Source of the DNA: Anaerolineae bacterium
GTDB taxonomy: Bacteria; Chloroflexota; Anaerolineae; Fen-1058
Length of the DNA: 64,000 nt
Assembly (NCBI GenBank): GCA_046328575.1
Contig: JAXLWI010000003.1
Location: 52 to 64,051 of the forward strand
Direction: 5' to 3'
Position 1 is the stretch's first letter, and each line of letters starts with the position of its first letter. The notes under the pieces are model-generated. The model was not told the origin of the DNA, did not search any database, and worked only from the letters and a program-made list of their open reading frames with translations. The position numbers and the translations under genes are program-made. Below are positions 6,327 through 32,753 of this stretch, one piece after another.

Positions 6327-6420
6327 ACTCTTTTCGCCTCCAAATTTCTGGTCGAAGTATGCCACGCGCACGTTAAGATTTCGTAAGAAGGACTTGAAAG
6401 TTGCTTGAAAAGTGCGCTAA

Positions 6421-6700
6421 AACGCAAACCGCCCGACCTTGCCTAAGGGTCGGGCGATCTGCGTAGGAGGAAGGAAGTTGATGATAGTATCGATCCGTTG
6501 GCTTAAGCGCACATGAAAAAGAGTTGAAGGTTGATTGAGAGTTGGCCAACTTTCAAAGTTCGTGCCGTATAACGCAAATCGCTCGACCTTGCCTAAGGGT
6601 CGAGCGATTTGTGTAGGAGGAAGGAAGTTGATGATAGTATCGATCTGTTGGCTTAAATTCATATGAAAACGAGTTGAAAGTTGATTGAGAATTCGAGAGA
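6421..6700. repeat. Tandem direct repeat, 2 copies, period 150 bp (120 bp near-identical core). Each copy holds a 9-bp-stem hairpin and, on the + strand, AGGAGG followed by an 11-codon mini-ORF
   Basis: Copy 1 6421-6540, copy 2 6571-6690, ~93% identical. Hairpins are cgcccgacc-ttgcctaag-ggtcgggcg (6430-6456) and cgctcgacc-ttgcctaag-ggtcgagcg (6580-6606). The c->t change in the left arm is matched by a g->a change in the right arm (compensatory). Mini-ORFs MIVSIRWLKRT (6481-6516) and MIVSICWLKFI (6631-6666) lie 8 nt after AGGAGG. Confidence 0.8.
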
Positions 6701-7994: not shown

Positions 7995-10900
7995 GTGATG
8001 TTAAACAAATCTAGATCCTCTTCCTCAGAATCACAAGATTTTGCCAATGGCCTCAGTCTGATGAGCCAGATTGGTCAGGCGATTGTTGCCACACTGGAGC
8101 CAGGTAAACTGATTGAGGAAATCTACCATCAGACACACAAAGTCATCCCGGCCAACATCTTTACCCTTTCTCTGTTTACCGATGACCCGAATTGGATAGA
8201 TATGTTTGCGGTGGATAAGGGGCAAGTCGTCCAGGAGCGGCGTCGCATCGGCACCCTCACCCGATGGGTGGTCGAGCAGCGCACGCTGTTTTCTACGCCC
8301 GATGATCAAGTACAACTTCCTCCTGTACCAGTCACACGAATCGAAACCGACACCGTTGAAGAACCGCGTGCCTATATATTGATCCCGATGATCACCCACG
8401 ACAAAGTTGTAGGCGTCATCTCAGTTCAAAGTTATGAGCCGGATGCTTTCAATGACATGCATCTTGCCATGCTATCGGCCATCGCCAGCCACTCGGCGAT
8501 TGTGATTGAGAATAACCGTCTACTGGCCCAAGCGCAACACCGTGCCGCCGAACTGGCCAGTTTGGAACGGATCGGCTACGAACTGGCACGCCTGACGAAC
8601 ATTGAGGATGTGCTGAAGAAGATCATTACTGAGGCCAAAGACCTGCTCACAGCCGATTCCATGTCGATTTTTGCGTATGATGAGCGGCGCGGCAAGTTTC
8701 GCCCCCCGGCTTTTATTCTCAGGCCTGGAGCCGCCGGGCCTGTCGCGCGTGAACGACCACCGCGCGAGATTGGTCTGACCATCAGGGTTGTTCGACTTCA
8801 CTGTGCCATTTTTACCGAAGTCGCGGCGGACGGTCAAGTACTGTTTGCGGAGACCCCGATCGGCCAAAACGTCGAAGTGGCTCAACGGAAGACCTTTGAG
8901 TTTACCGACCAGGACACGCTCGAATTCTTGCAGGCGCAGAATGTGCGCTCATCCATTGGCTTTCCACTTAGCGCGGGTCGGGATATTGTAGGCGTGCTGT
9001 ATATTAACTACCAACGGCCGCATACCTTCGGCCAGGATGAGTTCCAAACCATCGGCCGATTGGCGCAATATGCGGGCACGGCGATCCAACGGGCCAACGT
9101 CTACGGCGAGATCCGAGCGTTGCATCAGGCGGGCCATGCGCTGACCGGGCAAACCGAGATGCGAGCCGTGCTCAACAAACTCGTCGAGTATGGACATGAA
9201 GTGCTGGGGGCCGATCTGATTACGGTCTTTCCCTATCATGCCGGGGCGGACGAGTTTGAACTGCCGCCGGTCGTGTCAGGCGTGGCCCTGAAACCGGACC
9301 AACTTTTGCCGCCGCAAATCAAGTCCGATGATACTGTACGCCGGATCGTAACAGAGAAAAGCGCCCACTTCAGTCGAGACGCGCAGATAGATCCTTTGCT
9401 GGCAGGGTCCGATCCGGCTCTGCGGGAGTCTCGCTTTGTGAGTCGGGAGCAGATTGTCTCGGCGGCGGCGATTCCTTTACGTACCAACGATGATGTCGTA
9501 GGCGCACTGTTTTTCAATTATCGAACCCGGCAACGATTTGGCTCTCATCAGCGGACACTGATCGAAACCTTTGCGGCGTATGCGGCGACGGCCATTCAAC
9601 GGGCTCGATTGCTAGACCGCCGCCTCAAGGAGTTGCGGGCGCTGGCTGAGATTGATGCGGCGATCACATCGGGCAGTCTGCGAGATGTGTTGGACAAAAT
9701 CATTCAGTCAGCGTGTGAGATCGTGGGCGCCAAAGATGGCAATATTCTCTTGTTACATGAAAGTGGAGAGTATCTGTATCTTGCCGCTCGGCAGGGTGAG
9801 GCGTGGCGCAGTGGGGCGCCGGAACGATTTGAAACTGGTACGAGCAGTGTGACTGGCTGGGTTGCCGCGCACAAAAAAACAGCCCGGATTGGCAATGTCC
9901 GTACCGAGGAACCGTGGAAGGACATCTACCTCGAAGTAATCCCTGACATCCAATCGGAATTGAGTGTGCCAATCCTTGATGAGCAGAAGCAGCTGGTTGG
10001 GATCATCTTTTTAGACAGCAAGGCGGCTCACGCTTTTTCGGCCGACGACGAGCGGCTGCTGGAGGCTCTGGCCGGGCAAGCCTATATTGCCATTCGCAAC
10101 CGGCGTCAATTTGAAGCCGAGCAACGCGCACTCCGAGAACTGCACCTGTTGAGAGAGATCGATAACGCCGTCAGTTCGACGCTGAATACCCAAGAAGTCT
10201 TGCAGCTGATTGTGGACAAGATCGATACGTTAATTGATGCCCCGATCTTCGTCGTGATGCTGGCTGATGAACGGCGAGGAGATTTGTATCAAGCCGCCGG
10301 GCGAGGAGTAGTTGCAGATCTCAAGTATCATCGTCAGAAGATAGGTACAGGGATCGTAGGCCAGGTGGCGCTGACCCATCAAAGTGTGCGGATTGGAGAT
10401 GTTAATGCATTAGTAGGAGAGGTGGATTATCTGCAAGTCGTATCAGACACTCGCTCGGAGTTGGCGGTTCCCATCCTGCAAGGTGACCAACTGGTGGGGG
10501 TGCTGAACGTTGAAAGTCCTCAAGTGAACGCGTTCAATGCGGACGATGAGCGACTGTTGAACAGCCTAGCCTCACTGGCAGTCGTCGGGATCCAAAACTC
10601 ACGTCTCTATGAACAGGAGCAGCGTTCCCGAAAGGTGATAGACATCTTGCGCGACGTCGATAAAGCGATCGCTTTCTTGGCTGTTAATCCGCCCGATCAT
10701 CCCGTGCAAAGCCTCGCGGAGGCATTGAGTCCGGTGCTCCAAATTATCCTCAACCGTGGCCTGGAAGCTGTCGGTGCGGTGGTAGGTAGTATCATGTTGT
10801 ATGATGAGGCGACCGATGACTTATATATGGCGGCCGAGCAGGGAGTCTTGTCAGAGTATCGAAACGCGCGACAGAAGATCGGCCAAGAAAAAGGTATCAT

Positions 10901-12887
10901 TGGAAAGGTAGCGTTAGAGAGACAAATATTGCGGATAGATGACGTAACCGCTACACCTTGGAACACCCAGTATCAAGAGTATACGCCCGGAATGCGTTCA
11001 GAATTGGCTGTACCGCTGATGCACCAAAACCGATTAGTGGGTGTCCTCAACGCTGAAAGCCCTCGGATGAGCGCTTTCGGACCTGACGAGGAAAACCTGT
11101 TCGAGACCTTAGCCGGGCAGGCCGTGATCGCATATTTGAATGCGGAAAGATATCAAGCCCTGCAAACGCTCCGAGATATCAATCAATTGCTAGCTTCAGG
11201 CTATGATACCAGTGAAGTGCTGAAGTTGATCTTGGAGTATGCCTGCACCTTCTTCCGGGTCAAGTGGGGAAACCTACGGGTATATGATCCCAGTGGCCGC
11301 CCTACGCGTGACTACGTACTGGTCACGTCAGCCTTGGATCACGCTCCTGACATCCGGGTGATTGATTTACGATTGGCCACTCATGAACGTTGGCTCGATA
11401 GAGGCATCGTGGACTGGGTTGCGCAGCATCGCACGCTGTTTCGCTCTCAGGGTGATGTGCGCAACGATCAACGCTTTTTGAGCTTTCCAGGCCTTGAGAT
11501 TCGTTCGGAGATGACCGCGCCGCTTTCAGTTGGGCCGGATCTAGTGGGCGTGCTGAACCTGGAGAGCGAACGTCCCGGTGCCTTTGATGAAGAGGATGAA
11601 AATCGAATGGGGGACTTCAGCGCGCAGGCCGCGCTGGCCGTGCAGAATGCACGTAACCTGGCCGAGTTGCAAGAGACACAGGAGCGCTTTTCAGCCCTCT
11701 ATGAAGTGGGGAGCGAGATTATCACGGCTCCCTTGAATGAACAGAAGATTCTTGAAATTGCCCTGAATGCCGGGCTAAACCGCACCGGGGTCTTCCACGC
11801 AATTGCCTGGCAACCCGATCGAGACGGCAAACAATTGGAAGCGCGTCTGGTGCTGGGCGAGCAGCAATCCGAGCCGCACGAGCCTATTCCCCGCGATGGC
11901 ACACTTGTTAACAGCGTGGCATGGCAAAAGCGGTCAGAGATCCTGGTCGACGACGTGACAGCGCCACCGGAGGGAGTAAAGCATCGGCCCGGATATACGC
12001 GGACAGGCTCAATGCTGGTTATGCCGATGATGGCAGGCGGCGAGTATTTCGGCAACCTGGACTTTCGGCACAAAGACCCTCACGGATTCAAACAGGAGGA
12101 AATCCGCCTGCTCAATGGCTTGACTGCGCAAGCGGCCAATGCAATACGTCGCATCCGCCATGAAAGAGAACTGGACCAATTCCGACAACGTGAGCACGAA
12201 GCGCGAGCCATGACAGATATTGGTATGGCTGCCGGCGAATTGGGGCACCGGATTGGTAATAAACTTGGCCTATTCAAAACTCATATTGAGGCAATCAAAG
12301 AACAGATTGGCTCGAGTTATCAAGATATCACTCGACGACTGGACTATATGTCAACAAATGTGCAATACTTGCTAACGTTAACCCAACAGTTGAAGCAAGA
12401 ATTGAATGACCGAACGAGTGGAGTTAAGAAGCAGAAAAAGGATTATTCTGCAGCAGTTGTGTTATTTGAAGCATGTAACTCGAAGACTCCGTCGGAATTC
12501 ATTCATGTGCAAATGGACCCTCCAACAGACGACCTTATAGTGAGGGCGGATGATAGCATTTTTGATGCTTTCATTAATATCTACAGTAATGCAATTGAAG
12601 CGCTTGAGTTGCAGGGCGGCACAATCTATATGAGTGCCTGTCAAATTAATGGTTGGATTGAATTCAGGATAGCAGATGATGGCCCGGGCATAGAAGCAGG
12701 AAAACTCGACAAGATCTTTAACTTGTTCTATTCGACCAAGCAAAATAGTCTGGGTTTTGGATTGTTTAGCGCTAAACAACGGGTATTGGCCAACGGTGGA
12801 CAAATCGAAGTACACAGTAAGATTGGAGAAGGGACCACGTTTATAATTCGACTGCCGTCAGCGTTAGCCAAAGAGGTGCGATCATGA
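7995..12887 (+). CDS. Sensor histidine kinase with eight tandem GAF domains and an NtrB-like kinase core (H-box GELGHRIGNKLG, N/G1/G2 boxes NIYSNAIEA/DDGPGI/GFGLF)
   Basis: 1630 aa. Repeated GAF signature (SELAVPIL.GD.LVGVLNVES.....F...DE.LL) about 8 times. C-terminal HATPase_c. Probable start ATG 7998 (GTG 7995 in the ORF track). Stop overlaps the next start (ATGA). Confidence 0.85.
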   Translation: MMLNKSRSSSSESQDFANGLSLMSQIGQAIVATLEPGKLIEEIYHQTHKVIPANIFTLSLFTDDPNWIDMFAVDKGQVVQERRRIGTLTRWVVEQRTLFSTPDDQVQLPPVPVTRIETDTVEEPRAYILIPMITHDKVVGVISVQSYEPDAFNDMHLAMLSAIASHSAIVIENNRLLAQAQHRAAELASLERIGYELARLTNIEDVLKKIITEAKDLLTADSMSIFAYDERRGKFRPPAFILRPGAAGPVARERPPREIGLTIRVVRLHCAIFTEVAADGQVLFAETPIGQNVEVAQRKTFEFTDQDTLEFLQAQNVRSSIGFPLSAGRDIVGVLYINYQRPHTFGQDEFQTIGRLAQYAGTAIQRANVYGEIRALHQAGHALTGQTEMRAVLNKLVEYGHEVLGADLITVFPYHAGADEFELPPVVSGVALKPDQLLPPQIKSDDTVRRIVTEKSAHFSRDAQIDPLLAGSDPALRESRFVSREQIVSAAAIPLRTNDDVVGALFFNYRTRQRFGSHQRTLIETFAAYAATAIQRARLLDRRLKELRALAEIDAAITSGSLRDVLDKIIQSACEIVGAKDGNILLLHESGEYLYLAARQGEAWRSGAPERFETGTSSVTGWVAAHKKTARIGNVRTEEPWKDIYLEVIPDIQSELSVPILDEQKQLVGIIFLDSKAAHAFSADDERLLEALAGQAYIAIRNRRQFEAEQRALRELHLLREIDNAVSSTLNTQEVLQLIVDKIDTLIDAPIFVVMLADERRGDLYQAAGRGVVADLKYHRQKIGTGIVGQVALTHQSVRIGDVNALVGEVDYLQVVSDTRSELAVPILQGDQLVGVLNVESPQVNAFNADDERLLNSLASLAVVGIQNSRLYEQEQRSRKVIDILRDVDKAIAFLAVNPPDHPVQSLAEALSPVLQIILNRGLEAVGAVVGSIMLYDEATDDLYMAAEQGVLSEYRNARQKIGQEKGIIGKVALERQILRIDDVTATPWNTQYQEYTPGMRSELAVPLMHQNRLVGVLNAESPRMSAFGPDEENLFETLAGQAVIAYLNAERYQALQTLRDINQLLASGYDTSEVLKLILEYACTFFRVKWGNLRVYDPSGRPTRDYVLVTSALDHAPDIRVIDLRLATHERWLDRGIVDWVAQHRTLFRSQGDVRNDQRFLSFPGLEIRSEMTAPLSVGPDLVGVLNLESERPGAFDEEDENRMGDFSAQAALAVQNARNLAELQETQERFSALYEVGSEIITAPLNEQKILEIALNAGLNRTGVFHAIAWQPDRDGKQLEARLVLGEQQSEPHEPIPRDGTLVNSVAWQKRSEILVDDVTAPPEGVKHRPGYTRTGSMLVMPMMAGGEYFGNLDFRHKDPHGFKQEEIRLLNGLTAQAANAIRRIRHERELDQFRQREHEARAMTDIGMAAGELGHRIGNKLGLFKTHIEAIKEQIGSSYQDITRRLDYMSTNVQYLLTLTQQLKQELNDRTSGVKKQKKDYSAAVVLFEACNSKTPSEFIHVQMDPPTDDLIVRADDSIFDAFINIYSNAIEALELQGGTIYMSACQINGWIEFRIADDGPGIEAGKLDKIFNLFYSTKQNSLGFGLFSAKQRVLANGGQIEVHSKIGEGTTFIIRLPSALAKEVRS

Positions 12888-13303
12888 GAGTGCTAATAAT
12901 AGACGAAGATCGGTATTGGCGTGAGATGGCCTGGATGTGCCTGCGACAGGTGGGGTACCGTGTAGACGCGGTTGCTGATTCTCTCCGGCTACAACAGTTT
13001 CTCGCAAAGTGTCCGGATATCATCTTATTGGGATTCTCAGTCATTCGGCCACATGACGAAGATCTAGTCGCCTGTGTACGCAGAACCTGCCCTCAGGCCA
13101 TGACGCTGGTGTTCTCGACATCTTGGCCGATTGCCCAGGCAATCGAGAGACGTTTGCTGCGTAGCGGAGTTGTTGATGTAATGGGGCGCTCTAGCTTCGA
13201 CTGTGATCTGGTTAGCCTTGTCGAGAATGAATATGCTAATCAAACTCAAGAGACGGCTTTGCTCTCAATCTATGGGCGATTCCGTCTACAGGGAGCGAAG
13301 TGA
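12884..13303 (+). CDS. Degenerate (pseudo-)receiver domain protein; phospho-acceptor Asp replaced (PDIILLGFSV)
   Basis: 139 aa with CheY-like fold signature (MRVLIIDEDRYW..., LVFSTS) but Gly at the phospho-acceptor Asp position and no conserved Lys. ATG overlaps the kinase stop. Confidence 0.55.
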   Translation: MRVLIIDEDRYWREMAWMCLRQVGYRVDAVADSLRLQQFLAKCPDIILLGFSVIRPHDEDLVACVRRTCPQAMTLVFSTSWPIAQAIERRLLRSGVVDVMGRSSFDCDLVSLVENEYANQTQETALLSIYGRFRLQGAK

Positions 13304-14910
13304 TGGCGGAACGACGAGTATTAATCGTTGACGATGAAATCGAATGGCAGGAAGAACTGCGTCACATTCTTGTCGGAGGGGGCTATCAAGTTGACACGGC
13401 AGGAAGCCTGGAAGTTGCCTTTGCGTATCTCAACAATCGTCTTTATCACCTGGTCATCATTGACATACGACTGGCAGATCGGGATGTAGACAATGTTGAA
13501 GGCATGAGGATCCTTGAAGAATTACATGCACGTTACGATGATACGACGTTGTCGAAAATCATGATTTCTGCCTATGGCACGCGCGAGCAGATGCGAAAGG
13601 CATTTAAGCAGCACAAGGTCGCCGATTTCATTTCTAAACAAGAATTTGACAAATGCGAGTTTCTGACAATCGTTGAAGACACCTTCATTCAAAATGTTAG
13701 AGTGAATCCGAAACTTGACATTGTTTTAGAGGATGGTTTGTCTTTCGAGAATATGATTGTCGGTATCATTTCCCGCGATGGCAAGCGCGTTAAGAGCGCC
13801 GATGCCGATGTGCCGCGGCTTGTCATGGAACTCGAAGATTTGTTTTGCCGTTTGTTTTATGACGATATGCGCATTATCGTACGAAGGGTTACCTTGGGTC
13901 GTGGCAAAGCGGGTGTTGTCAAGGTGGCACCATTCTCGCATGATGGACATGATGAAACTGTGATTGTTAAGTATGGCGATCATGAAGAAATCGCTCGCGA
14001 GTGTCAAAACTATGAGGACTGCGTCAAGGGCAAGATCGGCATGTTATCCACCAATGTCCTCAATTTGAAAAGAACTCCGTTGTTGGGTGGTGTCGTCTAT
14101 TCGCTGATCGGCACACGTGTTGAAGAGATTGTCGACTTTGCCGAGTTTTATCACAAGCACCCGACTGACCGGATCAAGACAGTTCTCGACCACTTGTTTA
14201 AAGAAACATGTGGCAACTGGTATACTGACCGTGGTAAAGTTCAATACTGCCACCTTGACGACATGTATGAAAAGGCTCTTGATTTTCGGCACTCTCAATT
14301 AATAGATGCTCTGGAAGATAACTTTCCGCATTACCTGGATCAAAAAATACTTGCCTTTCGCGATCTTCCCGACGTGCACGTTCCAAATCCGGCCTATGCG
14401 GTCAAAGGATCAGCGTTCTCTCAGTTGACCTTTGCTTGCACGACCCACGGCGATCTCAATGCTAACAATATCCTAATTGATGTCAATGATCACACGTGGC
14501 TGATCGACTTCTATCGCACAGGTGCAAGCCACATCCTGCGGGATTGCATCCAGTTGGAAACAGTCATCAAATTCGTCTTATTGCCGGGGGTCTTGCAATC
14601 AGGCGAGGAACTAACTGCACGCTATCATCTCGAAAGGGCATTGCTGAACATGAATCGTCTTAAAGAGGCCGACACTTTACATTATGAAGCGCCCCACGAA
14701 GAATATGCGAAGGCCTTTGAAGTTTGTCGCCGATTGCGACAGATTGCCCGCGATTTGGTGCATCCCAACGATGACTTTGCCGAGTACGCAATTGGCCTCT
14801 TATACTGTAGCATGAACACACAGCGTTTCTACAAGCTGCCTAAAATTAACCGCTTGCATGCGCTGCTTGCAGCGGGTATGTTGTGCCAGAAATTGGGGAT
14901 CAACGCCTGA
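13300..14910 (+). CDS. Response regulator: canonical receiver domain fused to a protein-kinase-like / aminoglycoside-phosphotransferase-like domain
   Basis: N-terminal receiver (VLIVDDE..., LVIIDIRLAD, IMISAYGT, FISKQ). C-terminal PKL motifs: Gly-rich loop GRGKAGVVKV, VIVKYG Lys, catalytic HGDLNANNILID, DFG-like LIDFYRTG. Confidence 0.6.
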   Translation: MMAERRVLIVDDEIEWQEELRHILVGGGYQVDTAGSLEVAFAYLNNRLYHLVIIDIRLADRDVDNVEGMRILEELHARYDDTTLSKIMISAYGTREQMRKAFKQHKVADFISKQEFDKCEFLTIVEDTFIQNVRVNPKLDIVLEDGLSFENMIVGIISRDGKRVKSADADVPRLVMELEDLFCRLFYDDMRIIVRRVTLGRGKAGVVKVAPFSHDGHDETVIVKYGDHEEIARECQNYEDCVKGKIGMLSTNVLNLKRTPLLGGVVYSLIGTRVEEIVDFAEFYHKHPTDRIKTVLDHLFKETCGNWYTDRGKVQYCHLDDMYEKALDFRHSQLIDALEDNFPHYLDQKILAFRDLPDVHVPNPAYAVKGSAFSQLTFACTTHGDLNANNILIDVNDHTWLIDFYRTGASHILRDCIQLETVIKFVLLPGVLQSGEELTARYHLERALLNMNRLKEADTLHYEAPHEEYAKAFEVCRRLRQIARDLVHPNDDFAEYAIGLLYCSMNTQRFYKLPKINRLHALLAAGMLCQKLGINA

Positions 14911-14921
14911 GAGGATGAACC

Positions 14922-16487
14922 ATGCGGGTTCTCATAGTAGATGACGAGCAAGAATGGCGCGAGAATCTTTGTGACACCGTTCGATTGGCTATTCACCAAA
15001 CCGTCGAGTGTGTGTTAGCCGCCAGTCTTGAAACGGCTCAAGCCGAACTCAAGCAGGCATCATTTGCGCTTATTCTTAGCGACCTTGGTATTCCGTCCCG
15101 TGATGGCATTTCTGACATATCCCCTGAAAACGGCATGTTGCTCTTGCGACTGATTCGAAGCAACGGGCTTAATCAAGGGGCCATTGGTATCGTCGTTACA
15201 TCTCGTGGAACGCCGACTCGCATGCGGGAAGTGCTTCTTAGGCTCAATTTCTCTGATTTCCTAGAAAAAGACAAATTCGATCAAAAAGAAGCTCAGGAAG
15301 TCATTCGCGCGGCACTTTTCACTGGAGCGTATCAACGTGTTGCCGCGTCACAAGCAACCAAATTTGATTTAACATTTGTGTTGACGAATACCCACTGCGT
15401 CTTCGCAGAGTTGTCTGGTCCGGAACGGTTTGGAGATGTAATTCCCGATCAGCCACTGGTCTTTGAGGCGGAGGAATCGATCCGCCGAGCAGACCGTATT
15501 CGCAAGCTCGTCACTGGTGATCTGCGCCGTGAGATGATTGATGAATGGCGGACTGATGCGCGTGAGACTGGAATGGGCCTCTATCGAAGTCTGTTCGGCG
15601 ACTTGTCATTTGGCGGCATTTTGCGGGCTGGCTCCGAAGGCCCGAAACAGTTTCGCGATCTCCGGCTGTGTTTTCGTGGCACACGCCGTTCGTTGGCTGT
15701 GCCCTTTGAACTCCTACATAATAATTCGGAATACCTGGCGTTAAATCATCCCCTTGTCCGCCAGGTCACCTCGGATCACGCGTCGGCTCGCAAGGCTGCC
15801 GCTTTTCGGACTTCACTTCTCAAACTGCACGAGTCGGATAAGACCCTCAACGTACTCCTGCTTGCTTCAAACGGTGGCGATGATCTGGAGGCGGCTGATC
15901 AGGAAGTGACCCAACTTAAGACCCGCATCGATGACCGTTTAGCCGAGACGGGGGTCCGTCGTAATGTATTAGCTATCTCTACGGCTGAGGCGACCTATAC
16001 ACGCGTCGAGTCAGTGCTGCGCGAACGAAAATGGCATGTCATTCACTATGCCGGGCATGGCCGTTGGAATCCGGATCTCCCGGAGGATAGTGCGTTAATC
16101 TTCATGCATAACGACAAGCCACGGTCGATGCCGGCCAGTGTGTTGCATGATCTTCTGAAAGATTCAGAGACTCTGCTGTTCTTCCTAAATGGGTGCTGGG
16201 GTGCGCGCACGGCCGAACATTCAGAGCAAGGCGACTTGTATGGGTTGATGGACAGCCTAGTACAGGCAGGCACGCCCATTGTTTTGGGCCACCGCTGGAG
16301 TGTATCAGACGGCGCCGCCCGTGATTTAGCGTTGACCTTTTACAATGACCTGCTCCAAAATTGGTCGGCTGAGGATGCGCTCCTCTTGGCGCGGAAAGCC
16401 GTCGTGAGCGAGTCCCCATTCCACGGAGACGACCCGGGTTGGGCCTCGCCTATTTTGGTGGTACAGACTGCATACACCCGCTGCTAA
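14922..16487 (+). CDS. Response regulator: receiver domain fused to a CHAT (caspase-like) peptidase domain
   Basis: Receiver motifs (VLIVDDEQEW, LILSDLGIP, VVTSRGT). C-terminal CHAT signature: VIHYAGHGRW (catalytic His) and LLFFLNGCWGART (catalytic Cys). Confidence 0.75.
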   Translation: MRVLIVDDEQEWRENLCDTVRLAIHQTVECVLAASLETAQAELKQASFALILSDLGIPSRDGISDISPENGMLLLRLIRSNGLNQGAIGIVVTSRGTPTRMREVLLRLNFSDFLEKDKFDQKEAQEVIRAALFTGAYQRVAASQATKFDLTFVLTNTHCVFAELSGPERFGDVIPDQPLVFEAEESIRRADRIRKLVTGDLRREMIDEWRTDARETGMGLYRSLFGDLSFGGILRAGSEGPKQFRDLRLCFRGTRRSLAVPFELLHNNSEYLALNHPLVRQVTSDHASARKAAAFRTSLLKLHESDKTLNVLLLASNGGDDLEAADQEVTQLKTRIDDRLAETGVRRNVLAISTAEATYTRVESVLRERKWHVIHYAGHGRWNPDLPEDSALIFMHNDKPRSMPASVLHDLLKDSETLLFFLNGCWGARTAEHSEQGDLYGLMDSLVQAGTPIVLGHRWSVSDGAARDLALTFYNDLLQNWSAEDALLLARKAVVSESPFHGDDPGWASPILVVQTAYTRC

Positions 16488-16513
16488 AGTCAAACCGTAG
16501 TCAGTATTGCCCA

Positions 16514-19500
16514 ATGAAAACTACCTCTATAGCATCTAACTCGAGGGCGCAAGGTCTTGCCGACGGCCTCAGCCTAATGAGCCAGATTGGTCAGGCGATC
16601 GTTGCCACGCTGGAGCCAGGTGAACTCATCGAGGAAATCTACCATCAGACCCACAAGGTCATCCCGGCCAACACCTATACCCTCTCTTTGCTCACCGATG
16701 ACCCAAATTGGATAGACATGTTTGCGGTCGATGAAGGACAAATTGTCCAGGAGCGGCGGCATATCGGCACCCTCACCCGATGGGTGGTCGAGCATCGCAC
16801 ACCGTTTGCTACGCCCGATGATCAAAGGCAACCTCCTCCGGTAGCGGTCACGCGAATCGAGACTGGTGTCGCTGATGAACCGCGGGCCTACATTCTCATC
16901 CCGATGGTTACCCACGATAAAGTCGTCGGCGTCATCTCGGTTCAAAGTTATGAGCCGGATGCTTTCAATGACGTGCATCTTGCCATGCTGTCGGCCATCG
17001 CCAGCCACTCGGCGATTGTGATAGAGAATAACCGTCTGCTGGCGCAGGCCCAGCATCGTGCTGCCGAACTGGCCAGTTTGGAGCGGATCGGCTACGAACT
17101 GGCGCGCCTGACGAACATCGAGGATGTGCTCAAGAAGATCATTACCGAGGCCAAAGACCTGCTCAACGCCGACTCCATGTCGATCTTTGCGTATGATGAG
17201 CGGCGCGGCAAGTTTCGACCCCCGACCTTTCTTCTCAAACCCGGAGCCGTCGGGCCGGTCGCACGTGAACGACCACCGCGCGAGGCTGGTCTGACGATCA
17301 GGATTGTTCGACATCACTGTGCCATTTTTACCGAAGTCAAGGCGGACGGTCAAGTGCAGTTTGCAGAGATCCCGATCGGTCAAAACTTCGAAGTGGCACA
17401 ACGGAAGACCTTTGAGTTTACCGACCAGGACACACTCGAATTCTTGCAGGCGCAGAATGTTCGCTCGTCCATCGGCTTTCCACTCAGCGCGGGTCGGGAT
17501 ATTGTGGGCGTGCTGTACGTCAACTACCAGCAGCCGCATGCCTTTGGCCAGGATGAGTTGCAGACCATTGGTCGATTGGCGCAATATGCGGGCACGGCGA
17601 TCCAACGGGCCAATGTGTATGGTGAGATCCGAGCGCTGCATCAAGCGGGCCACGCGCTGACCGGGCAAACCGAGATGCGGGCCGTGCTCAACAAACTCGT
17701 GGAATATGGGCACGAGGTGCTAGGGGCCGATCTGATTACGGTCTTCCCTTATCATGCCGGGGCGGACGAATTCGAACTGCCGCCGGTCGTGTCGGGCACG
17801 GCTTTGGCCCCCGACAATCTCTTACCGCCACAAATCAGGTCCGATGATACTGTACGCCGGATCGTGACCGAGACAAGCGCCCACTTCAGTCGGGATGCGC
17901 AGACGGATCCTTTGTTGGCAGGGTTCGATCCGGTCTTGCGGCAGTCCCGCTTCGTCACTCGCGAGCAGATTGCATCGGCGGCGGCGATTCCCTTGCGAAC
18001 CAATGGTGATGTCGTCGGCGCTCTGTTCTTCAATTATCGCACCCGGCAACGATTTGGTTCTCATCAGCGTACGCTGATCGAAACCTTTGCGGCGTATGCG
18101 GCGACGGCTATTCAACGGGCCCGATTGCTAGACCGCCGCCTCAAGGAGTTGCGTGCGCTGGCCGAGATTGATGCGGCGATCACATCGGGCAGTCTGCGAG
18201 ATGTGCTGAACAAAATCATTCAGTCAGCGTGTGAGATCGTGGGCGCCAAAGATGGCAACATTCTGTTGTTGCACGAAAGCGGGCAGTATCTGTATCTTGC
18301 TGCCCGTCAAGGTGAGGTGTGGCGCAGTGGCGCGCCGGAACGATTTGAGATTGGTAAGACCGGCGTGCAGGGCTGGGGCGCCGTGCACAAGAAACCAGCC
18401 CGGATTGGCAATGTGCATACCGAGGAACCGTGGAAGAATATTTACCTCGAAGTGATCCCCGGCATCCAATCGGAATTGAGTGTGCCGATCTTGGACGAGG
18501 AGAAGCAACTGGTTGGGATCATCATTTTGGAAAGTAAGGCGGCTCACGCCTTTTCGGCGGACGATGAGCGGTTGCTCGAGGCCTTGGCCGGGCAAGCCTA
18601 TATTGCCATTCGCAACCGGCGTCAATTCGAGGCTGAGCAGCGCGCGCTCCGCGAACTGCATCTGCTGAGAGAGATTGACAGCGCCGTCAGTTCGACACTC
18701 AACCATCAGGCGGTGCTGCAATTTATTGTAGACAAGAGCGATGTTCTGATTGATGCGCCTATCTTCACAGTGATGCTGTATGACGAACGGCGCGGCGATT
18801 TGTATCAAGCAGCGGGACGAGGCATAGTTGCAGATCACAAGTATCATCGTCAGAAGATGGGTACGGGGATCGTAGGGCAAGTGGCGTTGACACGCAGGAG
18901 CGTGCGGGTCGGTGATGTCACTACACTTGCGCAGAATGAAGGCTTTCTACCAGATATGCTCGATACTCGTTCAGAGCTAGCGGTTCCCATCCTGCAAGGT
19001 GACCAATTTGTTGGCGTGCTGAACGTCGAAAGCCCTGAAGTTGACGCGTTCAATGCGGACGATGAACGACTGTTGAAAAGTCTGGGATCGCTGGTCGCTG
19101 TCGCGATCCAAAACAGCCGCCTCTATGAACAGGAACAGCGCGCCCGCCAGGTGATTGATATCTTGCGCGAAGTCGACCAGGCGATTGCCTTCTTAGCAGT
19201 GACTCAACCGGAGAACCTGGCAGACGAATTGAGCCCCATACTGCAAATCCTCCTCAATCGTGGCTTGGATGCGGTGCACGCGCCGGCTGGCAATATTATG
19301 CTGTATGATGATGCCACCGATGATTTATACATGGCGGTCGAGCGTGGTGTGCTGCCCGAACACCGCACCGCCCGCCAGAAGATCGGCGAGGGCGTCGTGG
19401 GCCGCGTCGCAATTGATAAACGAACGTTGCGTATAGATGATGTGAATGTGCCGCCGTGGGATACAGTCTATCAAGGCTACATCTCCGACGTTCGATCTGA

Positions 19501-21430
19501 ACTCGCCGTGCCACTGGTATACAAAGACCGCCTGGTCGGCGTCCTCAACGCCGAAAGCCCACTGGTAAGCGCGTTCGGACCTGAAGATGAGGACCTCTTC
19601 GAAGCCCTGGCCGGGCAAGCCGTGATTGCCTATTTGAACGCCGAACGGTATCAGGCCTTGCAAACCCTTCGCGAAGTCAACCAATTGTTGGCCTCAGGCC
19701 ATGACTCCAACGACGTGCTGAAGTTGATCCTTATCTATACCTGTACCAACTTCCGAGTGGAGTGGGGGAACTTGCGGCTATTTGACCATACAGGACAGCC
19801 GATCCTCGATTACGTCCTGGTTACCTCGGCGCTGGGCATTGACCCGGAAGTACGGGTGATTGAAATTCGACGCGCAACTCATGAAAAATGGCTAGAGAAG
19901 GGCATCGTCAGCTGGGTCGCACAACAACGTGAACTGTTCCGCTCGCAGGGCAATGTGCAGGCAGATCCGCGCTTTCAGAGCTATCCTGGCCTCGAGATTC
20001 GTTCGGAAATGGCTGCGCCGCTGTTGGTTGGCTCAGATCTAGTTGGCGTGTTGAACCTGGAAAGCCAACGTCTAAATGCATTTGATGCAAACGATGAAGA
20101 CCGCATGCGCGACTTCAGTGCGCAGGCCGCACTGGCCGTGCAGAATGCGCGTAATTTGGCCGAGTTGCAAGAGAGCGAGGGGCGCTTTTCAGCCCTCTAT
20201 GAAGTAGGGAGTGAGATTATCACGGCTCCTTTGGATGAACTCAAGATCCTTGAGATTGTTCTGAGTGCCGGACTGAACCGCACGGGGGGCTTCCACGCAA
20301 TTGCCTGGCAACCCGATCGAGAGGGCAAACAATTGGAGGCGCGTCTGGTGCGGGGCGAGCAGCAAGCCGAGCCGCATGAGCCTATTGCACGCGACAGCAC
20401 ACTCGTTAACAGCGTGGCATGGCAAAAGCGGTCAGCGATCCTGGTCGACGATGTGACCGTGCCACCGGAAGGGACAAAGCATCGGCCTGGACATACGCGG
20501 ACCGGCTCAATGCTGGTGGTGCCGATGATGGCAGGGGAAGAGTATTTCGGTAACCTGGATTTTCGGCACAAAGACCCGCACGGATTCAAACAGGAAGAGA
20601 TTCGATTACTCAATGGCTTGGCCGCGCAGGCCGCCAATTCGATACGCCGTATCCGCCGTGAGAATGAGTTGAAGTCAATCTTACAGAAACAGTTTAACGA
20701 ATTACAAGATGCTTATGATGAATTAAGGATCGCTGACCGGCAAAAGTTGGAGTTTCTCGCGATTGCCTCTCACGAGCTGCGCAAACCATTAACTCCACTT
20801 CGTGTTGTCTTAGAACGGGCCGTTTTGGGTGAATACTCGCCATTAGAATTGCTGGATAAAATGCGGCTCGCCCTTGATCGTACCCAGCATCTAACAGGTA
20901 TCGTCGATCAACTTCTGAATATCGCTAGGATTGAAGCTGGCAAGATTAAGCCTGAGTTTGGAACTCATAGTGTAGTTGACTTGATAAAAAGATCGTTAAC
21001 AAGTATTCAGCATGTTGCCGAGAATAAAGGCATTCAGCTAATATCTGAATTGCCAACCGAATCGATCACCGCCGAAATCGATCAAGGTAAAATTAGCCAA
21101 GTGCTTGATAACCTCCTAGACAATGCTCTCAAACATACCGAGGCAGGCGGTTGTATTACAGTTTCATGTATTCACCTCAAGCCTGAAGACGACGTCATCC
21201 TCTGCGTCCGTGACACTGGAGAAGGAATACCAGAGAAGGAATACAAGCGAATCTTTGACTGGTTTTATCAGGTCGATCCTTCCCTGACGCGCTCCATTGA
21301 AGGTTTGGGCGTTGGGTTGTATGTCGCTAAAAAGTATATCGATATGCATGGCGGTCAGATCACGGTGAAAAGCGAGGTCGGCAAAGGCAGCACCTTCACT
21401 GTCTTGTTGCCGGCACGTCAGAAGGCATAA
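16514..21430 (+). CDS. Sensor histidine kinase, paralog of 7995-12887 with eight GAF domains but a classical HisKA (LEFLAIASHELRKPLTPL) + HATPase_c core
   Basis: Residues ~1-1340 are ~85-90% identical to the first kinase, then diverge into a PhoR/EnvZ-type core. Start set at ATG 16514 (MKTTSIAS...) by alignment with the paralog; the ORF-track start at 16439 overlaps the previous gene. Confidence 0.85.
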   Translation: MKTTSIASNSRAQGLADGLSLMSQIGQAIVATLEPGELIEEIYHQTHKVIPANTYTLSLLTDDPNWIDMFAVDEGQIVQERRHIGTLTRWVVEHRTPFATPDDQRQPPPVAVTRIETGVADEPRAYILIPMVTHDKVVGVISVQSYEPDAFNDVHLAMLSAIASHSAIVIENNRLLAQAQHRAAELASLERIGYELARLTNIEDVLKKIITEAKDLLNADSMSIFAYDERRGKFRPPTFLLKPGAVGPVARERPPREAGLTIRIVRHHCAIFTEVKADGQVQFAEIPIGQNFEVAQRKTFEFTDQDTLEFLQAQNVRSSIGFPLSAGRDIVGVLYVNYQQPHAFGQDELQTIGRLAQYAGTAIQRANVYGEIRALHQAGHALTGQTEMRAVLNKLVEYGHEVLGADLITVFPYHAGADEFELPPVVSGTALAPDNLLPPQIRSDDTVRRIVTETSAHFSRDAQTDPLLAGFDPVLRQSRFVTREQIASAAAIPLRTNGDVVGALFFNYRTRQRFGSHQRTLIETFAAYAATAIQRARLLDRRLKELRALAEIDAAITSGSLRDVLNKIIQSACEIVGAKDGNILLLHESGQYLYLAARQGEVWRSGAPERFEIGKTGVQGWGAVHKKPARIGNVHTEEPWKNIYLEVIPGIQSELSVPILDEEKQLVGIIILESKAAHAFSADDERLLEALAGQAYIAIRNRRQFEAEQRALRELHLLREIDSAVSSTLNHQAVLQFIVDKSDVLIDAPIFTVMLYDERRGDLYQAAGRGIVADHKYHRQKMGTGIVGQVALTRRSVRVGDVTTLAQNEGFLPDMLDTRSELAVPILQGDQFVGVLNVESPEVDAFNADDERLLKSLGSLVAVAIQNSRLYEQEQRARQVIDILREVDQAIAFLAVTQPENLADELSPILQILLNRGLDAVHAPAGNIMLYDDATDDLYMAVERGVLPEHRTARQKIGEGVVGRVAIDKRTLRIDDVNVPPWDTVYQGYISDVRSELAVPLVYKDRLVGVLNAESPLVSAFGPEDEDLFEALAGQAVIAYLNAERYQALQTLREVNQLLASGHDSNDVLKLILIYTCTNFRVEWGNLRLFDHTGQPILDYVLVTSALGIDPEVRVIEIRRATHEKWLEKGIVSWVAQQRELFRSQGNVQADPRFQSYPGLEIRSEMAAPLLVGSDLVGVLNLESQRLNAFDANDEDRMRDFSAQAALAVQNARNLAELQESEGRFSALYEVGSEIITAPLDELKILEIVLSAGLNRTGGFHAIAWQPDREGKQLEARLVRGEQQAEPHEPIARDSTLVNSVAWQKRSAILVDDVTVPPEGTKHRPGHTRTGSMLVVPMMAGEEYFGNLDFRHKDPHGFKQEEIRLLNGLAAQAANSIRRIRRENELKSILQKQFNELQDAYDELRIADRQKLEFLAIASHELRKPLTPLRVVLERAVLGEYSPLELLDKMRLALDRTQHLTGIVDQLLNIARIEAGKIKPEFGTHSVVDLIKRSLTSIQHVAENKGIQLISELPTESITAEIDQGKISQVLDNLLDNALKHTEAGGCITVSCIHLKPEDDVILCVRDTGEGIPEKEYKRIFDWFYQVDPSLTRSIEGLGVGLYVAKKYIDMHGGQITVKSEVGKGSTFTVLLPARQKA

Positions 21431-21448
21431 ACAAGCTGGAGGCTTCAC

Positions 21449-22963
21449 TTGTCGCAAAATCTCCGGATCCTCATCATCGATGATGATCTCATTGCAACTC
21501 AAGAACTCAAAGAAGCCCTTGAATATGAAGGGTATTCAGTCAGCATAGCATCCGGTGGAGTGGATGGTGTGCGCCTTGCAGAAGAGCTGCTTCCGAGCCT
21601 CATCATCTTGGATGTGATGATGCCGGGAATGGACGGCTTTGAAGTCTGCCGCCTGCTTCAAGCAGGGGCTGAAACGGCGAAAATTCCGATTCTCATGTTG
21701 ACCGCTCGCACTGAAGTACAGGACAGGATCAGCGGGCGCGACCGGGGTGCAATCGTTTATATGACCAAGCCGTACTCGATAAGCGAGCTGCGCGCTCAGG
21801 TCAGGGTTCTGCTCCATCGTTTCCCTAACCCACACCGCTCAGAGTTATCGATCACATACAATAGTCAGCAGGTATTCTCCTTCCAGCTACTGGGTGTTAC
21901 AACGTATGCCAGTGACGGGCGGCATATTCCCCTCGCTCTGGTGGATCTCAATCAAGAACTCGTAGACGTGGGAGATCGAATCAGTGCCTTCCAGAAACTC
22001 CTGGCAGATGCTCCTTCTGACGAACAAAGTGCGCAGTACCATGAAAAACGTGATGTCTGGCGACGGCAAGTTAAGAAGCGCGGCAAAGAACTCCACGATC
22101 AATTCGTCGCCGCCAACTCGGATCTGGTCGAGCAGTTTGGCTTGGCGAAACAAGTATTACGATCAGATGACTTACTTGTCCGCTTTATTGGGCCGCGAGC
22201 GCATCTTGGCCTGCCGTGGGAGCTGCTCCATGACGGCGAGCACGTGCCGTTGGTAATCATGCATCCATCCTGTCGGACAGTAACAAGTATTCATTCTCGT
22301 CACAAGCACGATTCATGGAGTGCCTTCCTCGACAGACTAGATTCCGAGCCGCTGCGTGTTCTGTTGCTTGCTTCGAGTTCAGGCACACCGCTTGAAGAAA
22401 TTCAATATTTAGGTCAATGGTTTAAGCAAGCATTTCGAGATAGGGTAGTTGTCGAACCTGATCCGCCGATAGTTTTGTCCCGACAACAGGCTGAAATCTT
22501 GCTGCGCAAAAAGTCGTTCCACCTCATTCACTACGCCGGTCATAGCAGCTTTGACGGGGTGCGCCCAGATCAAAGCGGGTTACGATTTGGCTCAAAGAGG
22601 GACGATCTGATCACGGCTGGGTGTCTATATGATCTGCTGCTTGATTCGCCGGCCCGGTTGGTTTTCTTGAATTCGTGCGCAGGCGCGCAAGTTGGTGATC
22701 TTGAACGACTCAAAGACAATGATTTTCTGGGCCTAATTGATGTAGCGGTCGTGGCCGGCGTGCCCGCTGTCTTGGGTTTTCGCTGGAATGTGACGAATGC
22801 CGCATCGTTCGAGTTCGCCAAACAGTTCTATGGTCACCTGCTTGAAACTCGGTCTTTGGAGCAAGCGACCTGGCTGACTCGCAAGAGCATCTATCGTGCT
22901 AACGGATGGGACGAAACCTGGCTCTCTCCTATCTTGGTCGTCCAAAATCCTCAATCCTTCTAA
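21449..22963 (+). CDS. Response regulator: receiver domain fused to a CHAT (caspase-like) peptidase domain (second copy)
   Basis: TTG start with SD GCTGGAGG. Canonical receiver (ILIIDDD, LIILDVMMPGMDG, LMLTART, YMTKPY). CHAT motifs HLIHYAGHSSF (His) and LVFLNSCAGAQ (Cys). Confidence 0.75.
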   Translation: MSQNLRILIIDDDLIATQELKEALEYEGYSVSIASGGVDGVRLAEELLPSLIILDVMMPGMDGFEVCRLLQAGAETAKIPILMLTARTEVQDRISGRDRGAIVYMTKPYSISELRAQVRVLLHRFPNPHRSELSITYNSQQVFSFQLLGVTTYASDGRHIPLALVDLNQELVDVGDRISAFQKLLADAPSDEQSAQYHEKRDVWRRQVKKRGKELHDQFVAANSDLVEQFGLAKQVLRSDDLLVRFIGPRAHLGLPWELLHDGEHVPLVIMHPSCRTVTSIHSRHKHDSWSAFLDRLDSEPLRVLLLASSSGTPLEEIQYLGQWFKQAFRDRVVVEPDPPIVLSRQQAEILLRKKSFHLIHYAGHSSFDGVRPDQSGLRFGSKRDDLITAGCLYDLLLDSPARLVFLNSCAGAQVGDLERLKDNDFLGLIDVAVVAGVPAVLGFRWNVTNAASFEFAKQFYGHLLETRSLEQATWLTRKSIYRANGWDETWLSPILVVQNPQSF

Positions 22964-22974
22964 GGAGAACTAAC

Positions 22975-23331
22975 ATGTCTGACCAGCAACCTTCCGATAG
23001 TATCATCGTTTACACCATGCCAGACGTAAGCGAAAAGACCAATGATTATGATCAGATGCGCGGTGATTATGATCAAGAGAGAAAGTGGTTTGGTTCTCCA
23101 AAGCCAACTACAGTCTCATCCGTGAAACTTCAACAGCAGATCAATGTCTTTCTAGTCCAAATGGGCGAAGCGTTGAAAGAAACACCGGCTGAAGTAGGCG
23201 GATTCAAATTAAATGAAATCGAAATCTCGGCCGGAATCACGGCCGGCTTGGAGATTGCGCTGATTGGGTTGGGCAGCGCCAAAGGTGAACTCACGGGGGG
23301 ATTACGCTTTACGTTTAAGCGTTCAGAATGA
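22975..23331 (+). CDS. Small (118 aa) protein resembling the Trypco2 / CU044_2847-type domain that co-occurs with trypsin/CHAT peptidases in conflict systems
   Basis: Strong SD AAGGAGA 6 nt before ATG 22975. C-terminal half (FKLNEIEISAGITAGLEIALIGLGSAKGELTGGLRFTFKR) matches the alternating beta-strand pattern I recall for Trypco2; from memory, not a search. Stop overlaps the next start (ATGA). Confidence 0.4.
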   Translation: MSDQQPSDSIIVYTMPDVSEKTNDYDQMRGDYDQERKWFGSPKPTTVSSVKLQQQINVFLVQMGEALKETPAEVGGFKLNEIEISAGITAGLEIALIGLGSAKGELTGGLRFTFKRSE

Positions 23332-25628: not shown

Positions 25629-25682
25629 AGAATACCCTCCTAGCATACCAAAAGAATGTCTTTGTGCTCGTTAAGCCCTGAC

Positions 25683-27053: not shown

Positions 27054-27311
27054 CGGCTTTGAAGGGAGCAGTATCTAATTAAAGAGATACTACTCTTTCG
27101 CTCATCTCTTAGAAATCATACAACTAGGTCGGTGATTGTCAAGAACAGCCTTGCGAAAGCGCGCATTCTGTGGGTACTGTGCCATTGAGGTTGAGGATCA
27201 ATCTCACACCGATGAGGCGCTGTACGCTGTGATGAACCAGATGCCAGAGAAGTTCGATTGGCCTGAGCTACCGACGCTCATCAATGCGCAAGGTTGGCTA
27301 CCGTGCGCAGT

Positions 27312-28391: not shown

Positions 28392-28409
28392 GGTTTGTGG
28401 TCCACGTAA

Positions 28410-29504: not shown

Positions 29505-29523
29505 TCTTTACTCCTTGTGATGA

Positions 29524-32653: not shown

Positions 32654-32753
32654 GTAAGGAAGCCTACCTAAGCATAAGGTAATATAGCATAAACTCTCGA
32701 CAAAGACCAACGCCCGATAGACGCTGAGCCTGACTTGGCAGTATAATGCAGCC

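Follow-up and report, generated by a model that had tools for sequence, protein, structure and literature searches.

Two tandem kinase cassettes at the locus

The window analyzed here is a stretch of 64,000 nt from an Anaerolineae bacterium (assembly GCA_046328575.1, contig JAXLWI010000003.1, positions 52 to 64,051 of the forward strand), and the coordinates of its features below are positions within it. There are eight genes on its plus strand (7998-24743) that are joined by 4-nt overlaps or by gaps of 11-26 nt, and from this spacing only we infer that they may form an operon; in a promoter and terminator scan, terminator-like sites were not commoner than in shuffled sequences. These genes make up two two-component cassettes in tandem, each headed by a large cytoplasmic histidine kinase (HK) with eight GAF domains, HK-A and HK-B (A and B for short). 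The two kinases are modular chimeras, in which a common sensor is joined to unrelated transmitter cores of different classes. Their 4.1-kb likeness is probably a product of interlocus gene conversion that was restricted to the sensors of two ancient tandem kinase paralogues with different transmitter classes.

Cassette A starts with HK-A (7998-12887, plus strand, 1629 amino acids (aa)), in which Pfam recognized eight GAF stretches and HATPase_c. Its sensor occupies 7998-12165 and its NtrB/FixL/ZraS-like transmitter core 12166-12887. The next gene encodes a pseudo-receiver of 139 aa (12884-13303, plus strand) with a receiver (REC) fold, which matched Response_reg weakly (E = 0.08) and NCBIfam response regulator models at 5e-5. 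Alignment to CheY revealed that its phospho-acceptor Asp57 is changed to Gly and Lys109 to Arg, and its orthologues follow each A-type kinase of the relatives described below (L1, L2, L3 and L5). Then come REC-TCAD9 (13300-14910, plus strand; Pfam, CheY alignment and NCBIfam), a receiver with a kinase-like TCAD9 domain that has weak APH/Kdo-kinase matches besides, and REC-CHAT-1 (14922-16487, plus strand; Pfam and alignment), a receiver fused to a caspase-like CHAT protease domain with both the catalytic His (HYAGHG) and Cys (FLNGC).

Cassette B starts with HK-B (16514-21430, plus strand, 1638 aa; eight GAF, HisKA and HATPase_c in Pfam), which consists of a sensor (16514-20663) and a HisKA/HK853-like transmitter core (20664-21430). 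It is followed by REC-CHAT-2 (21449-22963, plus strand; Pfam, NCBIfam and alignment), an OmpR/PhoB-class receiver with a CHAT protease domain, and the His (HYAGH) and Cys (FLNxC) motifs are conserved in both CHAT domains of the locus. The last two genes encode a Pepco-domain protein of 118 aa (22975-23331, plus strand; PF24393, E = 8e-13), whose start codon was set by comparison with its orthologue in L6, and an nSTAND1 NTPase with a C-terminal OmpR-type winged helix (Trans_reg_C) (nSTAND1-wHTH; 23328-24743, plus strand; Pfam). HK-A is 100% identical to P0001 of an Anaerolineae metagenome-assembled genome (MAG), HK-B is P0002 in the protein database, and both are identical to proteins of a single Anaerolineae MAG contig. 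No convincing membrane segment was found in either kinase.

The cores belong to different families. The HK-B core matched Pfam HisKA and HATPase_c, and its nearest solved structures are HK853, SrrB and WalK (E = 7e-40). The HK-A core has HATPase_c and no match to a Pfam family of dimerization and histidine phosphotransfer (DHp) domains; its nearest solved structures are ZraS, FixL and NtrB, and its H-box, GELGHRIGNKLG, aligns to the DHp H-box of FixL. The initial annotation, made from the letters of the window, had called them NtrB-like and PhoR/EnvZ-like, and these labels are broadly right. With regard to the receivers, REC-TCAD9, REC-CHAT-1 and REC-CHAT-2 all keep D12, D13, D57, T/S87 and K109 in alignment to CheY. 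Thus, a DHp histidine and HATPase_c are present in both kinases and a complete phosphorylation pocket in three receivers, as in genuine two-component systems. In NCBIfam the REC-TCAD9 receiver was closest to NtrX/ZraR, of the NtrC/NtrX/ZraR class, and the REC-CHAT-2 receiver to the RpaB/PhoB class (1e-30). The two receivers of cassette A are mutual closest relatives (E = 1e-14), from both of which REC-CHAT-2 is remote. Each core is likely to be matched to its own receiver class, NtrC-like in cassette A and OmpR/PhoB-like in cassette B, as judged from these similarities.

Mosaic likeness of the two sensor regions

Comparison of the two kinase genes by blastn gave a single high-scoring segment pair, 8034-12163 in A versus 16550-20661 in B, which covers 4134 nt with 82.4% identity and 26 gap positions (E = 0, 4161 bits). 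The repeat reported initially over the first ~4 kb is therefore real and well above what chance would give, but its identity is not the 85-90% that had been estimated, and it is a mosaic that varies between 61 and 96% by window, being 0.87-0.96 in 8373-9700 and 11523-12050 and 0.61-0.77 in 10100-11450. The antisense open reading frames (ORFs) that had been described as duplicated are indeed found at matching offsets in the two copies. Base-level alignments put the 5' edge at ~8030/16546 (codon ~12) and the 3' edge at ~12165/20663, in the 'IRRIR' helix leaving the C-terminus of GAF8, so that the likeness ends at the junction between sensor and DHp, as had been supposed. We annotate the homogenized tract at 8030-12165 (copy A, plus strand; blastn, synonymous divergence by segment and edge alignments) and 16546-20663 (copy B, plus strand; blastn and edge alignments).

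The similarity between A and B lies entirely within the ORFs, while promoter, intergenic and downstream DNA is unduplicated. Alignment of the DNA 5' of the two start codons found nothing in common, and REC-CHAT-1 and REC-CHAT-2 are only 35% identical. The C-terminal ~240 codons of the kinases, already noted as different, share 16-30% aa identity. A recent tandem segmental duplication would have carried neighboring DNA along and left roughly uniform divergence, neither of which was found. Since the similarity is intra-ORF and the REC-CHAT genes are so far apart, the 'segmental duplication' of the initial annotation is rejected in the usual sense of the term, and the 4.1-kb similarity does not go back to a recent duplication.

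To describe the age of the likeness, the synonymous divergence (dS) between A and B was calculated by the Nei-Gojobori method (NG86) for each segment. It was 0.43 in segment 1 (codons 13-700, 8034-10097, GAF1-4), 1.57 in segment 2 (codons 701-1150, 10098-11447, GAF5-7) and 0.52 in segment 3 (codons 1151-1388, 11448-12161, GAF8), and it was saturated in the core (codons 1400-1629). The heterogeneity among the three sensor segments is strong (chi-square 92.7, p = 7e-21). The ratio of nonsynonymous to synonymous divergence (dN/dS) of the sensors is 0.09-0.17, which indicates that both copies are under purifying selection and functional. That the pattern is only an artefact of MAG assembly, or only purifying selection on the GAF domains in the absence of recombination, seems extremely improbable to us. 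It is true that the window comes from a MAG contig and that dN/dS is ~0.1, but the copies differ by 18%, their ORFs are intact and each runs into different genes, and an independent MAG has the same layout. Moreover, selection on the protein can neither account for a dS as low as 0.2-0.5 next to saturated cores nor yield the discordance of trees described below.

Exact matches between A and B reach at most 49 nt, and 32 of them are of 20 nt or longer. It had also been suggested that the long direct repeats could mediate deletion or amplification of the intervening cassette. Such events could occur in principle, but they are probably inefficient at present, given a longest match of 49 nt and 18% divergence; unequal crossing-over between the copies is conceivable and should be rare at such divergence. 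The predicted product, in which loss of cassette A leaves the sensor joined to the B core, was seen in no relative.

A shorter repeat lies within each array. A 48-nt motif that encodes the helix closing GAF4, GAF6 and GAF8 occurs at 10044-10091, 11085-11132 and 12096-12143 in HK-A and at 18560-18607, 19583-19630 and 20594-20641 in HK-B, with a period of 1011-1041 nt in both kinases. This recurrence suggests that the eight-GAF array may have been assembled from two-GAF super-repeats. The conversion boundaries fall on these helices.

Related loci and the history of the tandem

Close relatives of the locus are few, and every sequence in this comparison is from MAG or metagenome contigs. L1, L2, L3, L5 and L6 denote the kinases of loci L001, L002, L003, L005 and L006, and L004 is the same as L006. 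When HK-A alone was used to scan genomes, no close relative turned up; a scan of metagenomes with alignment A1 was likewise empty, and an exact-sequence look-up of REC-CHAT-1 returned no record. An alignment-based genome scan matched two contigs of SMAG_U7929 (GCA_035292585.1), a distant Anaerolineae MAG, L005 (8041 nt) and L006. Both open inside a kinase at the equivalent of HK-A residue 108, and their first 141 nt are identical, which is expected of a fork in a k141 assembly graph. On L005, the remainder of an A-type HK is followed by genes for a 140-aa protein, REC-TCAD9 and REC-CHAT and by the first ~107 codons of another HK, which stop at 'EPPPV', exactly where L005 and L006 start ('PPPVQ'). 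L006 carries a B-type HK, REC-CHAT, Pepco, nSTAND1-wHTH, Band_7 and AAA_16. Because the end of L005 abuts the start shared by both contigs, the A-then-B tandem is taken to exist in SMAG_U7929 as well. The components correspond one to one: REC-CHAT-1 shares 62% aa identity with the REC-CHAT of L5 and REC-CHAT-2 60% with that of L6, REC-TCAD9 shares 62% with its L5 orthologue, Pepco 75% and nSTAND1-wHTH 52% with their L6 orthologues, and the cores share 67% (A with L5) and 47% (B with L6).

The phylogeny of the GAF region versus the cores, which had been proposed as a check, gives GAF1-4 clustered by genome and cores clustered by type. In the neighbor-joining tree of kinase cores, B and L6 form a group with 100% bootstrap and A joins L3, L5 and L1. 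In that of GAF1-4, on the other hand, A and B form one group and L5 and L6 another, both with 100% bootstrap. The aa identity in GAF1-4 is 91% for A-B and 89% for L5-L6 versus 59-60% for all four cross-genome pairs. Within-genome paralogues are thus closer than orthologues in the sensor, the duplication is older than the split of the genomes, and the mosaic extends to synonymous sites. This discordance between sensor and core trees is the signature of concerted evolution; the alternative needs independent duplications together with identical replacements of cores and effectors in two lineages.

The edges of the homogenized tracts are also comparable. L5 and L6 are 90.4% identical over nt 1-1809, where 100-nt windows switch between 100% and 77%, and identity falls to ~40% from nt ~1800. 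This drop sits just after 'YIAIRNQRxFEAE', the helix ending GAF4, and the jump of dS in the window at codon ~700 ('YIAIRNRRQFEAE') is at the same GAF4 end. For GAF5-8, the two window copies are both closer to the A-type L5 (0.44-0.83) than to the B-type L6 (0.14-0.58), and so the native C-terminal GAF domains of B were probably overwritten by A-type sequence in the window lineage. Another way to the same outcome, paralogues clustering within genomes, is that the A sensor was inserted into B independently in each lineage, through illegitimate domain shuffling instead of homology-driven conversion, and the 3' edge does lie where homology of the core families ends. We regard this as highly improbable, since the tracts of different age would need many in-frame events at homologous positions, the GAF4 boundary is common to both genomes and there are just 26 gap positions in 4134 nt.

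The other relatives contain parts of the same gene set. L001 has an A-type HK, a 141-aa protein and REC-TCAD9. L002 has an A-type HK, a 142-aa REC protein, REC-TCAD9, REC-CHAT, Pepco, Band_7 and AAA_16, with IndA on its left. L003 has a frameshifted A-type HK, which shares 75% identity with HK-A, and the same genes downstream of it. The locus of the window is flanked by IndA on the left and by Band_7, AAA_16 and N_BRCA1_IG/Band_7 on the right, matching L002. These chromosomal flanks, in common with L002 and L004, place the locus at a conserved chromosomal position. Together with the orthologous tandem in SMAG_U7929, they suggest that the cores and effectors are old residents of the locus and that it is the sensor which was overwritten.

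REC-CHAT proteins of ~500 aa are common in metagenomes (115 matches at E <= 1e-30). L013, the next-closest relative of REC-CHAT-2 and on a long contig, was considered as a third example and rejected; it has a B-like core and no related GAF array. L015 and L016 (Thermoanaerobaculia) were likewise set aside, having REC-CHAT after an ordinary HisKA kinase and none of the other components. The more distant L014 has the HK / REC-TCAD9 / REC-CHAT / Pepco theme with other kinase variants. Adjoining the locus on the opposite strand, L002 (2302-8876), L003 (209-6238) and L014 (9989-16345) have an extra conserved triad of an nSTAND1/AAA_16 NTPase, a shorter GAF histidine kinase (785-1131 aa) and another REC-TCAD9, which the window is without. 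In addition, the first ~1.6 kb of the L002 kinase (9373-10986 of L002) is 75% identical in nucleotide sequence to both window kinases, while the rest gives no blastn match to them and shares 36% aa identity in GAF6-8. This may reflect either a stronger constraint on GAF1-4 or an exchange of N-terminal sensors between lineages. L001 also contains a gyrB gene (19345-22965 of L001) split by an intein with a LAGLIDADG endonuclease domain.

The base composition changes sharply along the locus. G+C content (GC) falls from 0.547/0.565 in the GAF modules of A/B to 0.437/0.454 in the cores, and GC at third codon positions (GC3) from 0.59/0.63 to 0.43/0.47. The drop at the module junctions that had been noticed by eye is confirmed at both of them (from ~0.55 to 0.42-0.45), and the profile is not uniform: GC stays at 0.47-0.53 in the genes downstream of the cores as far as ~27 kb, while flanking genes have GC 0.57-0.65 and GC3 0.67-0.78 and the rest of the window has GC 0.57-0.60. 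The cassettes are thus off the genome norm (GC 0.42-0.53 vs 0.57-0.60; GC3 0.43-0.54 vs 0.67-0.78). The AT shift covers the whole interval from the region upstream of HK-A to AAA_16 (~7.7-27 kb), of which the GAF arrays are the GC-richest part; the intergenic region upstream of HK-A and the start of the gene are themselves AT-rich (GC 0.43-0.44). Cassette genes differ from flank genes also in codon usage. The GAF modules cannot be called host-like, being intermediate between flank and cassette.

The relatives vary in this respect. The A-type orthologues L1 and L5 have no dip (GC3 0.75-0.79 throughout), and SMAG_U7929 has one in the B cassette only. GC3 of L6 is 0.775 in the tract shared with L5 and 0.59, 0.54 and 0.585 in its own GAF domains, core and REC-CHAT. 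L2 is like the window (GC3 0.58-0.63 in the GAF domains, 0.49 in the core), and L002 also shows a locus-wide AT shift between flanks of native GC. The GC step is real and lineage-specific, and the locus is syntenic in relatives. In part the step is a matter of amino-acid composition, since the fall includes the first and second codon positions (GC 0.53 to 0.44) and FYMINK residues are more abundant in the cores; in part it reflects the whole-locus AT shift relative to the genome. GC-biased gene conversion was considered as its cause and explains little, for GC3 of the recently converted segments is only 0.02-0.06 above that of the old segment, against a step of 0.13-0.2 at the core.

The initial annotation read this composition as a host sensor grafted onto horizontally acquired cassettes, that is, a recent 4.1-kb duplication of a native sensor joined to two acquired, AT-richer sets of core and effectors. 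It is consistent with a fall in GC and GC3 that coincides exactly with both junctions and an AT shift that persists to ~27 kb, with the codon usage that separates cassette from flank genes, and with the GC3 of the A core, which at 0.43 versus 0.79 in its L5 orthologue ill fits long residence against a background of ~0.70. Nevertheless, we find such grafting very unlikely. SMAG_U7929 has both cassettes in tandem with the same cores, effectors and order, and they are orthologous; the flanks are syntenic in L002 and L004; the codon usage of the GAF modules is intermediate; the dS is non-uniform, against a single duplication; and the region upstream of HK-A and the start of this gene are AT-rich themselves. 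There is no tRNA gene in the window and no integrase or transposase Pfam family among 24 neighboring and flanking proteins scanned. Of the marks of a genomic island, the locus therefore has the deviating composition and neither absence or non-synteny in relatives, as it stands between the same flanks in L002, L004 and L005, nor a tRNA border or, among the proteins scanned, mobility genes.

Alternatively, the whole A+B locus (~7.7-27 kb) may have been imported by homologous recombination from a lower-GC relative with the same architecture, in addition to conversion. We think of this as a serious possibility, though rather unlikely. It accounts for the composition without grafting, as the entire interval is AT-shifted, L002 shows the same shift, and the GAF arrays are GC-richest in other low-GC copies too (L2, 0.58-0.63 vs 0.49; L6, 0.59 vs 0.54), and the similarity of the sensors would come from conversion either way. 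However, no donor was identified, and the GAF modules (GC3 0.59-0.66) are nearer to the background than the remaining locus.

Under the gene conversion that we favor, an old pair of tandem two-component cassettes would have been maintained vertically, and repeated non-reciprocal copying between their sensor-coding regions would have homogenized these in patches of different age. Conversion would halt at the C-terminal helix of GAF8, since different kinase families lie beyond it and there is no homology to recombine on. Each core would be constrained to stay matched to its own receiver class, so that one cytoplasmic multi-GAF input is held alike for two insulated phosphorelay branches, which may activate caspase-like CHAT proteases along with a kinase-like TCAD9 effector. 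This content suggests a putative cell-fate or conflict-type response. We propose only tentatively, and with more doubt than hope, that the sensor-restricted concerted evolution was selected and not incidental. One eight-GAF input would then serve two insulated branches, an NtrB-class core acting on REC-TCAD9 and REC-CHAT-1 and a HisKA-class core acting on REC-CHAT-2 with Pepco and the STAND-wHTH regulator, and two caspase-like proteases would be fired via separate wires in a cell-fate or conflict system of CHAT/STAND type driven by histidine kinases.

Several points count against the gene conversion account. The tandem of SMAG_U7929 was pieced together from contig ends and not read directly, both cassettes are known from two genomes only, and all sequences come from MAG or metagenome contigs. 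At A residues ~895-1130 (10677-11377; 19180-19870 in B), B groups with L3, an A-type kinase from another MAG or metagenome, with 96% bootstrap, and its nucleotide identity is 0.76-0.81 to L3 versus 0.65-0.73 to A. This patch is not predicted by simple A-to-B conversion and requires a third donor or accelerated change in A; it points to a probably reticulate history beyond simple copying. The most recent tracts of the window are not very recent (dS 0.2-0.6, and no exact match longer than 49 nt), and conversion may have ceased in this lineage. Gene conversion leaves the GC step unexplained, and the old segment 2, which looks unconverted, still has GC3 0.56-0.61 versus 0.43-0.47 in the cores. Finally, the function with the same input and two outputs rests wholly on domain content.

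To the right of the locus, the minus strand of 24765-32800 holds a run of genes that is kept beside the locus in L002 and L004 and may be functionally part of the system. It includes the conserved neighbors Band_7/SPFH (24765-25646, minus strand; Pfam) and an AAA_16 protein with Trans_reg_C (25683-27053, minus strand; Pfam), which are low in GC like the locus (GC3 0.45-0.46), followed by a protein with a weak AAA_22 match, an unannotated 364-aa protein, an N_BRCA1_IG protein and a second Band_7 protein. On the left, a gene at 268-1599 (minus strand) encodes a 443-aa protein with an N-terminal match to FAIM1 (Fas apoptotic inhibitory molecule; E = 9e-10), and its GC of 0.508 is below that of its neighbors. 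A 132-nt direct repeat (6412-6543 and 6562-6693, 88% identity, spacing 150 nt) sits in the 387-nt gap between a PDZ-protein gene and the IndA-like gene. Each copy contains a GC-rich hairpin (CGCCCGACC...GGTCGGGCG); it had no Rfam match at E <= 1, and a 108-aa minus-strand ORF across both copies is probably spurious. Tandem Repeats Finder, which was silent on this repeat, reported no tandem repeat in the window.

Comparison with known systems

A survey of prokaryotic concerted evolution listed 26 long-lasting cases, mostly subunits of stable complexes, and its text does not contain 'kinase', 'sensor' or 'two-component' (Wang and Chen, 2018, PMC6053082). The locus resembles these cases in its tandem copies and in a within-genome likeness that exceeds the between-genome one, synonymous sites included. 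The closest analogue in the survey is the tandem pair mtrA-1/mtrA-2 (PMC4632066), whose copies also differ in their fused parts; such differing fused or adjacent parts rule out independent duplications in each lineage. On the other hand, conversion is here limited to the sensor array within multidomain signaling proteins, it stops at the junction between sensor and transmitter of two kinase classes, and the pattern is known from two genomes only. Internal repeats of this kind break short-read assemblies, as seen in both contigs of SMAG_U7929, which begin with the same 141-mer, and they can mislead the dating of duplications and calls of horizontal transfer that are based solely on GC steps.

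Two-component kinases are thought to diverge in input and output after duplication; their sensors usually diverge or swap, and their cores drift apart gradually. Classical systems with duplicated and insulated paralogues are reportedly covered by the framework of Capra and Laub. The present cassettes are like them in that kinases are in operons with receivers, phospho-acceptors are kept and core classes match receiver classes. Unlike classical paralogues, however, the sensors are held alike and the cores come from unrelated families, and output is through CHAT proteases and a kinase-like TCAD9 domain instead of DNA-binding domains. In at least two distant genomes, the input ends of these tandem paralogues have been held alike in their DNA, and the output ends stay in different kinase and receiver classes. 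The pair may be seen as nature's equivalent of the sensor swaps engineered at the linker between sensor and DHp, showing where junctions are tolerated.

With regard to effectors, HetF-type CHAT proteases of cyanobacteria and BovA of Borvo have a CHAT domain with the His/Cys dyad in common with the present proteins. The protease fold is the sole shared feature, since an N-terminal receiver is present here and the scores are far below thresholds; the NCBIfam HetF match is weak (2e-9, far below the family cut-off). PADLOC-DB v2 gave no system-level match, only generic REC matches (SduA model region) and a weak one to BovA at the level of CHAT (3e-4). A MoxR/vWA/VMAP triad was not found in the locus or among those flanking genes in the first ~46 kb of the window that were scanned, and of the MoxR-vWA-VMAP ternary systems only the TCAD9 effector-type domain is in common with the locus. 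Nothing usable was found in the literature on the Pepco domain or on REC-CHAT response regulators.

The NTP-dependent conflict systems of multicellular prokaryotes (Kaur, Burroughs, Iyer and Aravind, 2020, PMC7159879; Kaur et al., 2021, PMC8195603) have CHAT, nSTAND1, TCAD9, receiver and APH-like kinase domains in common with the locus, as well as the host phylum, Chloroflexota, filamentous forms included. In these papers the receiver domains are described as occurring 'independently of histidine kinases' (PMC7159879; PMC8195603), whereas the receivers here are directly downstream of dedicated kinases, which places CHAT proteases and a TCAD9 effector directly under such kinases. If the homogenization of the sensors was indeed selected for two branches on one input, the locus would represent a kinase-driven form of the CHAT/STAND systems that were earlier described as kinase-independent.

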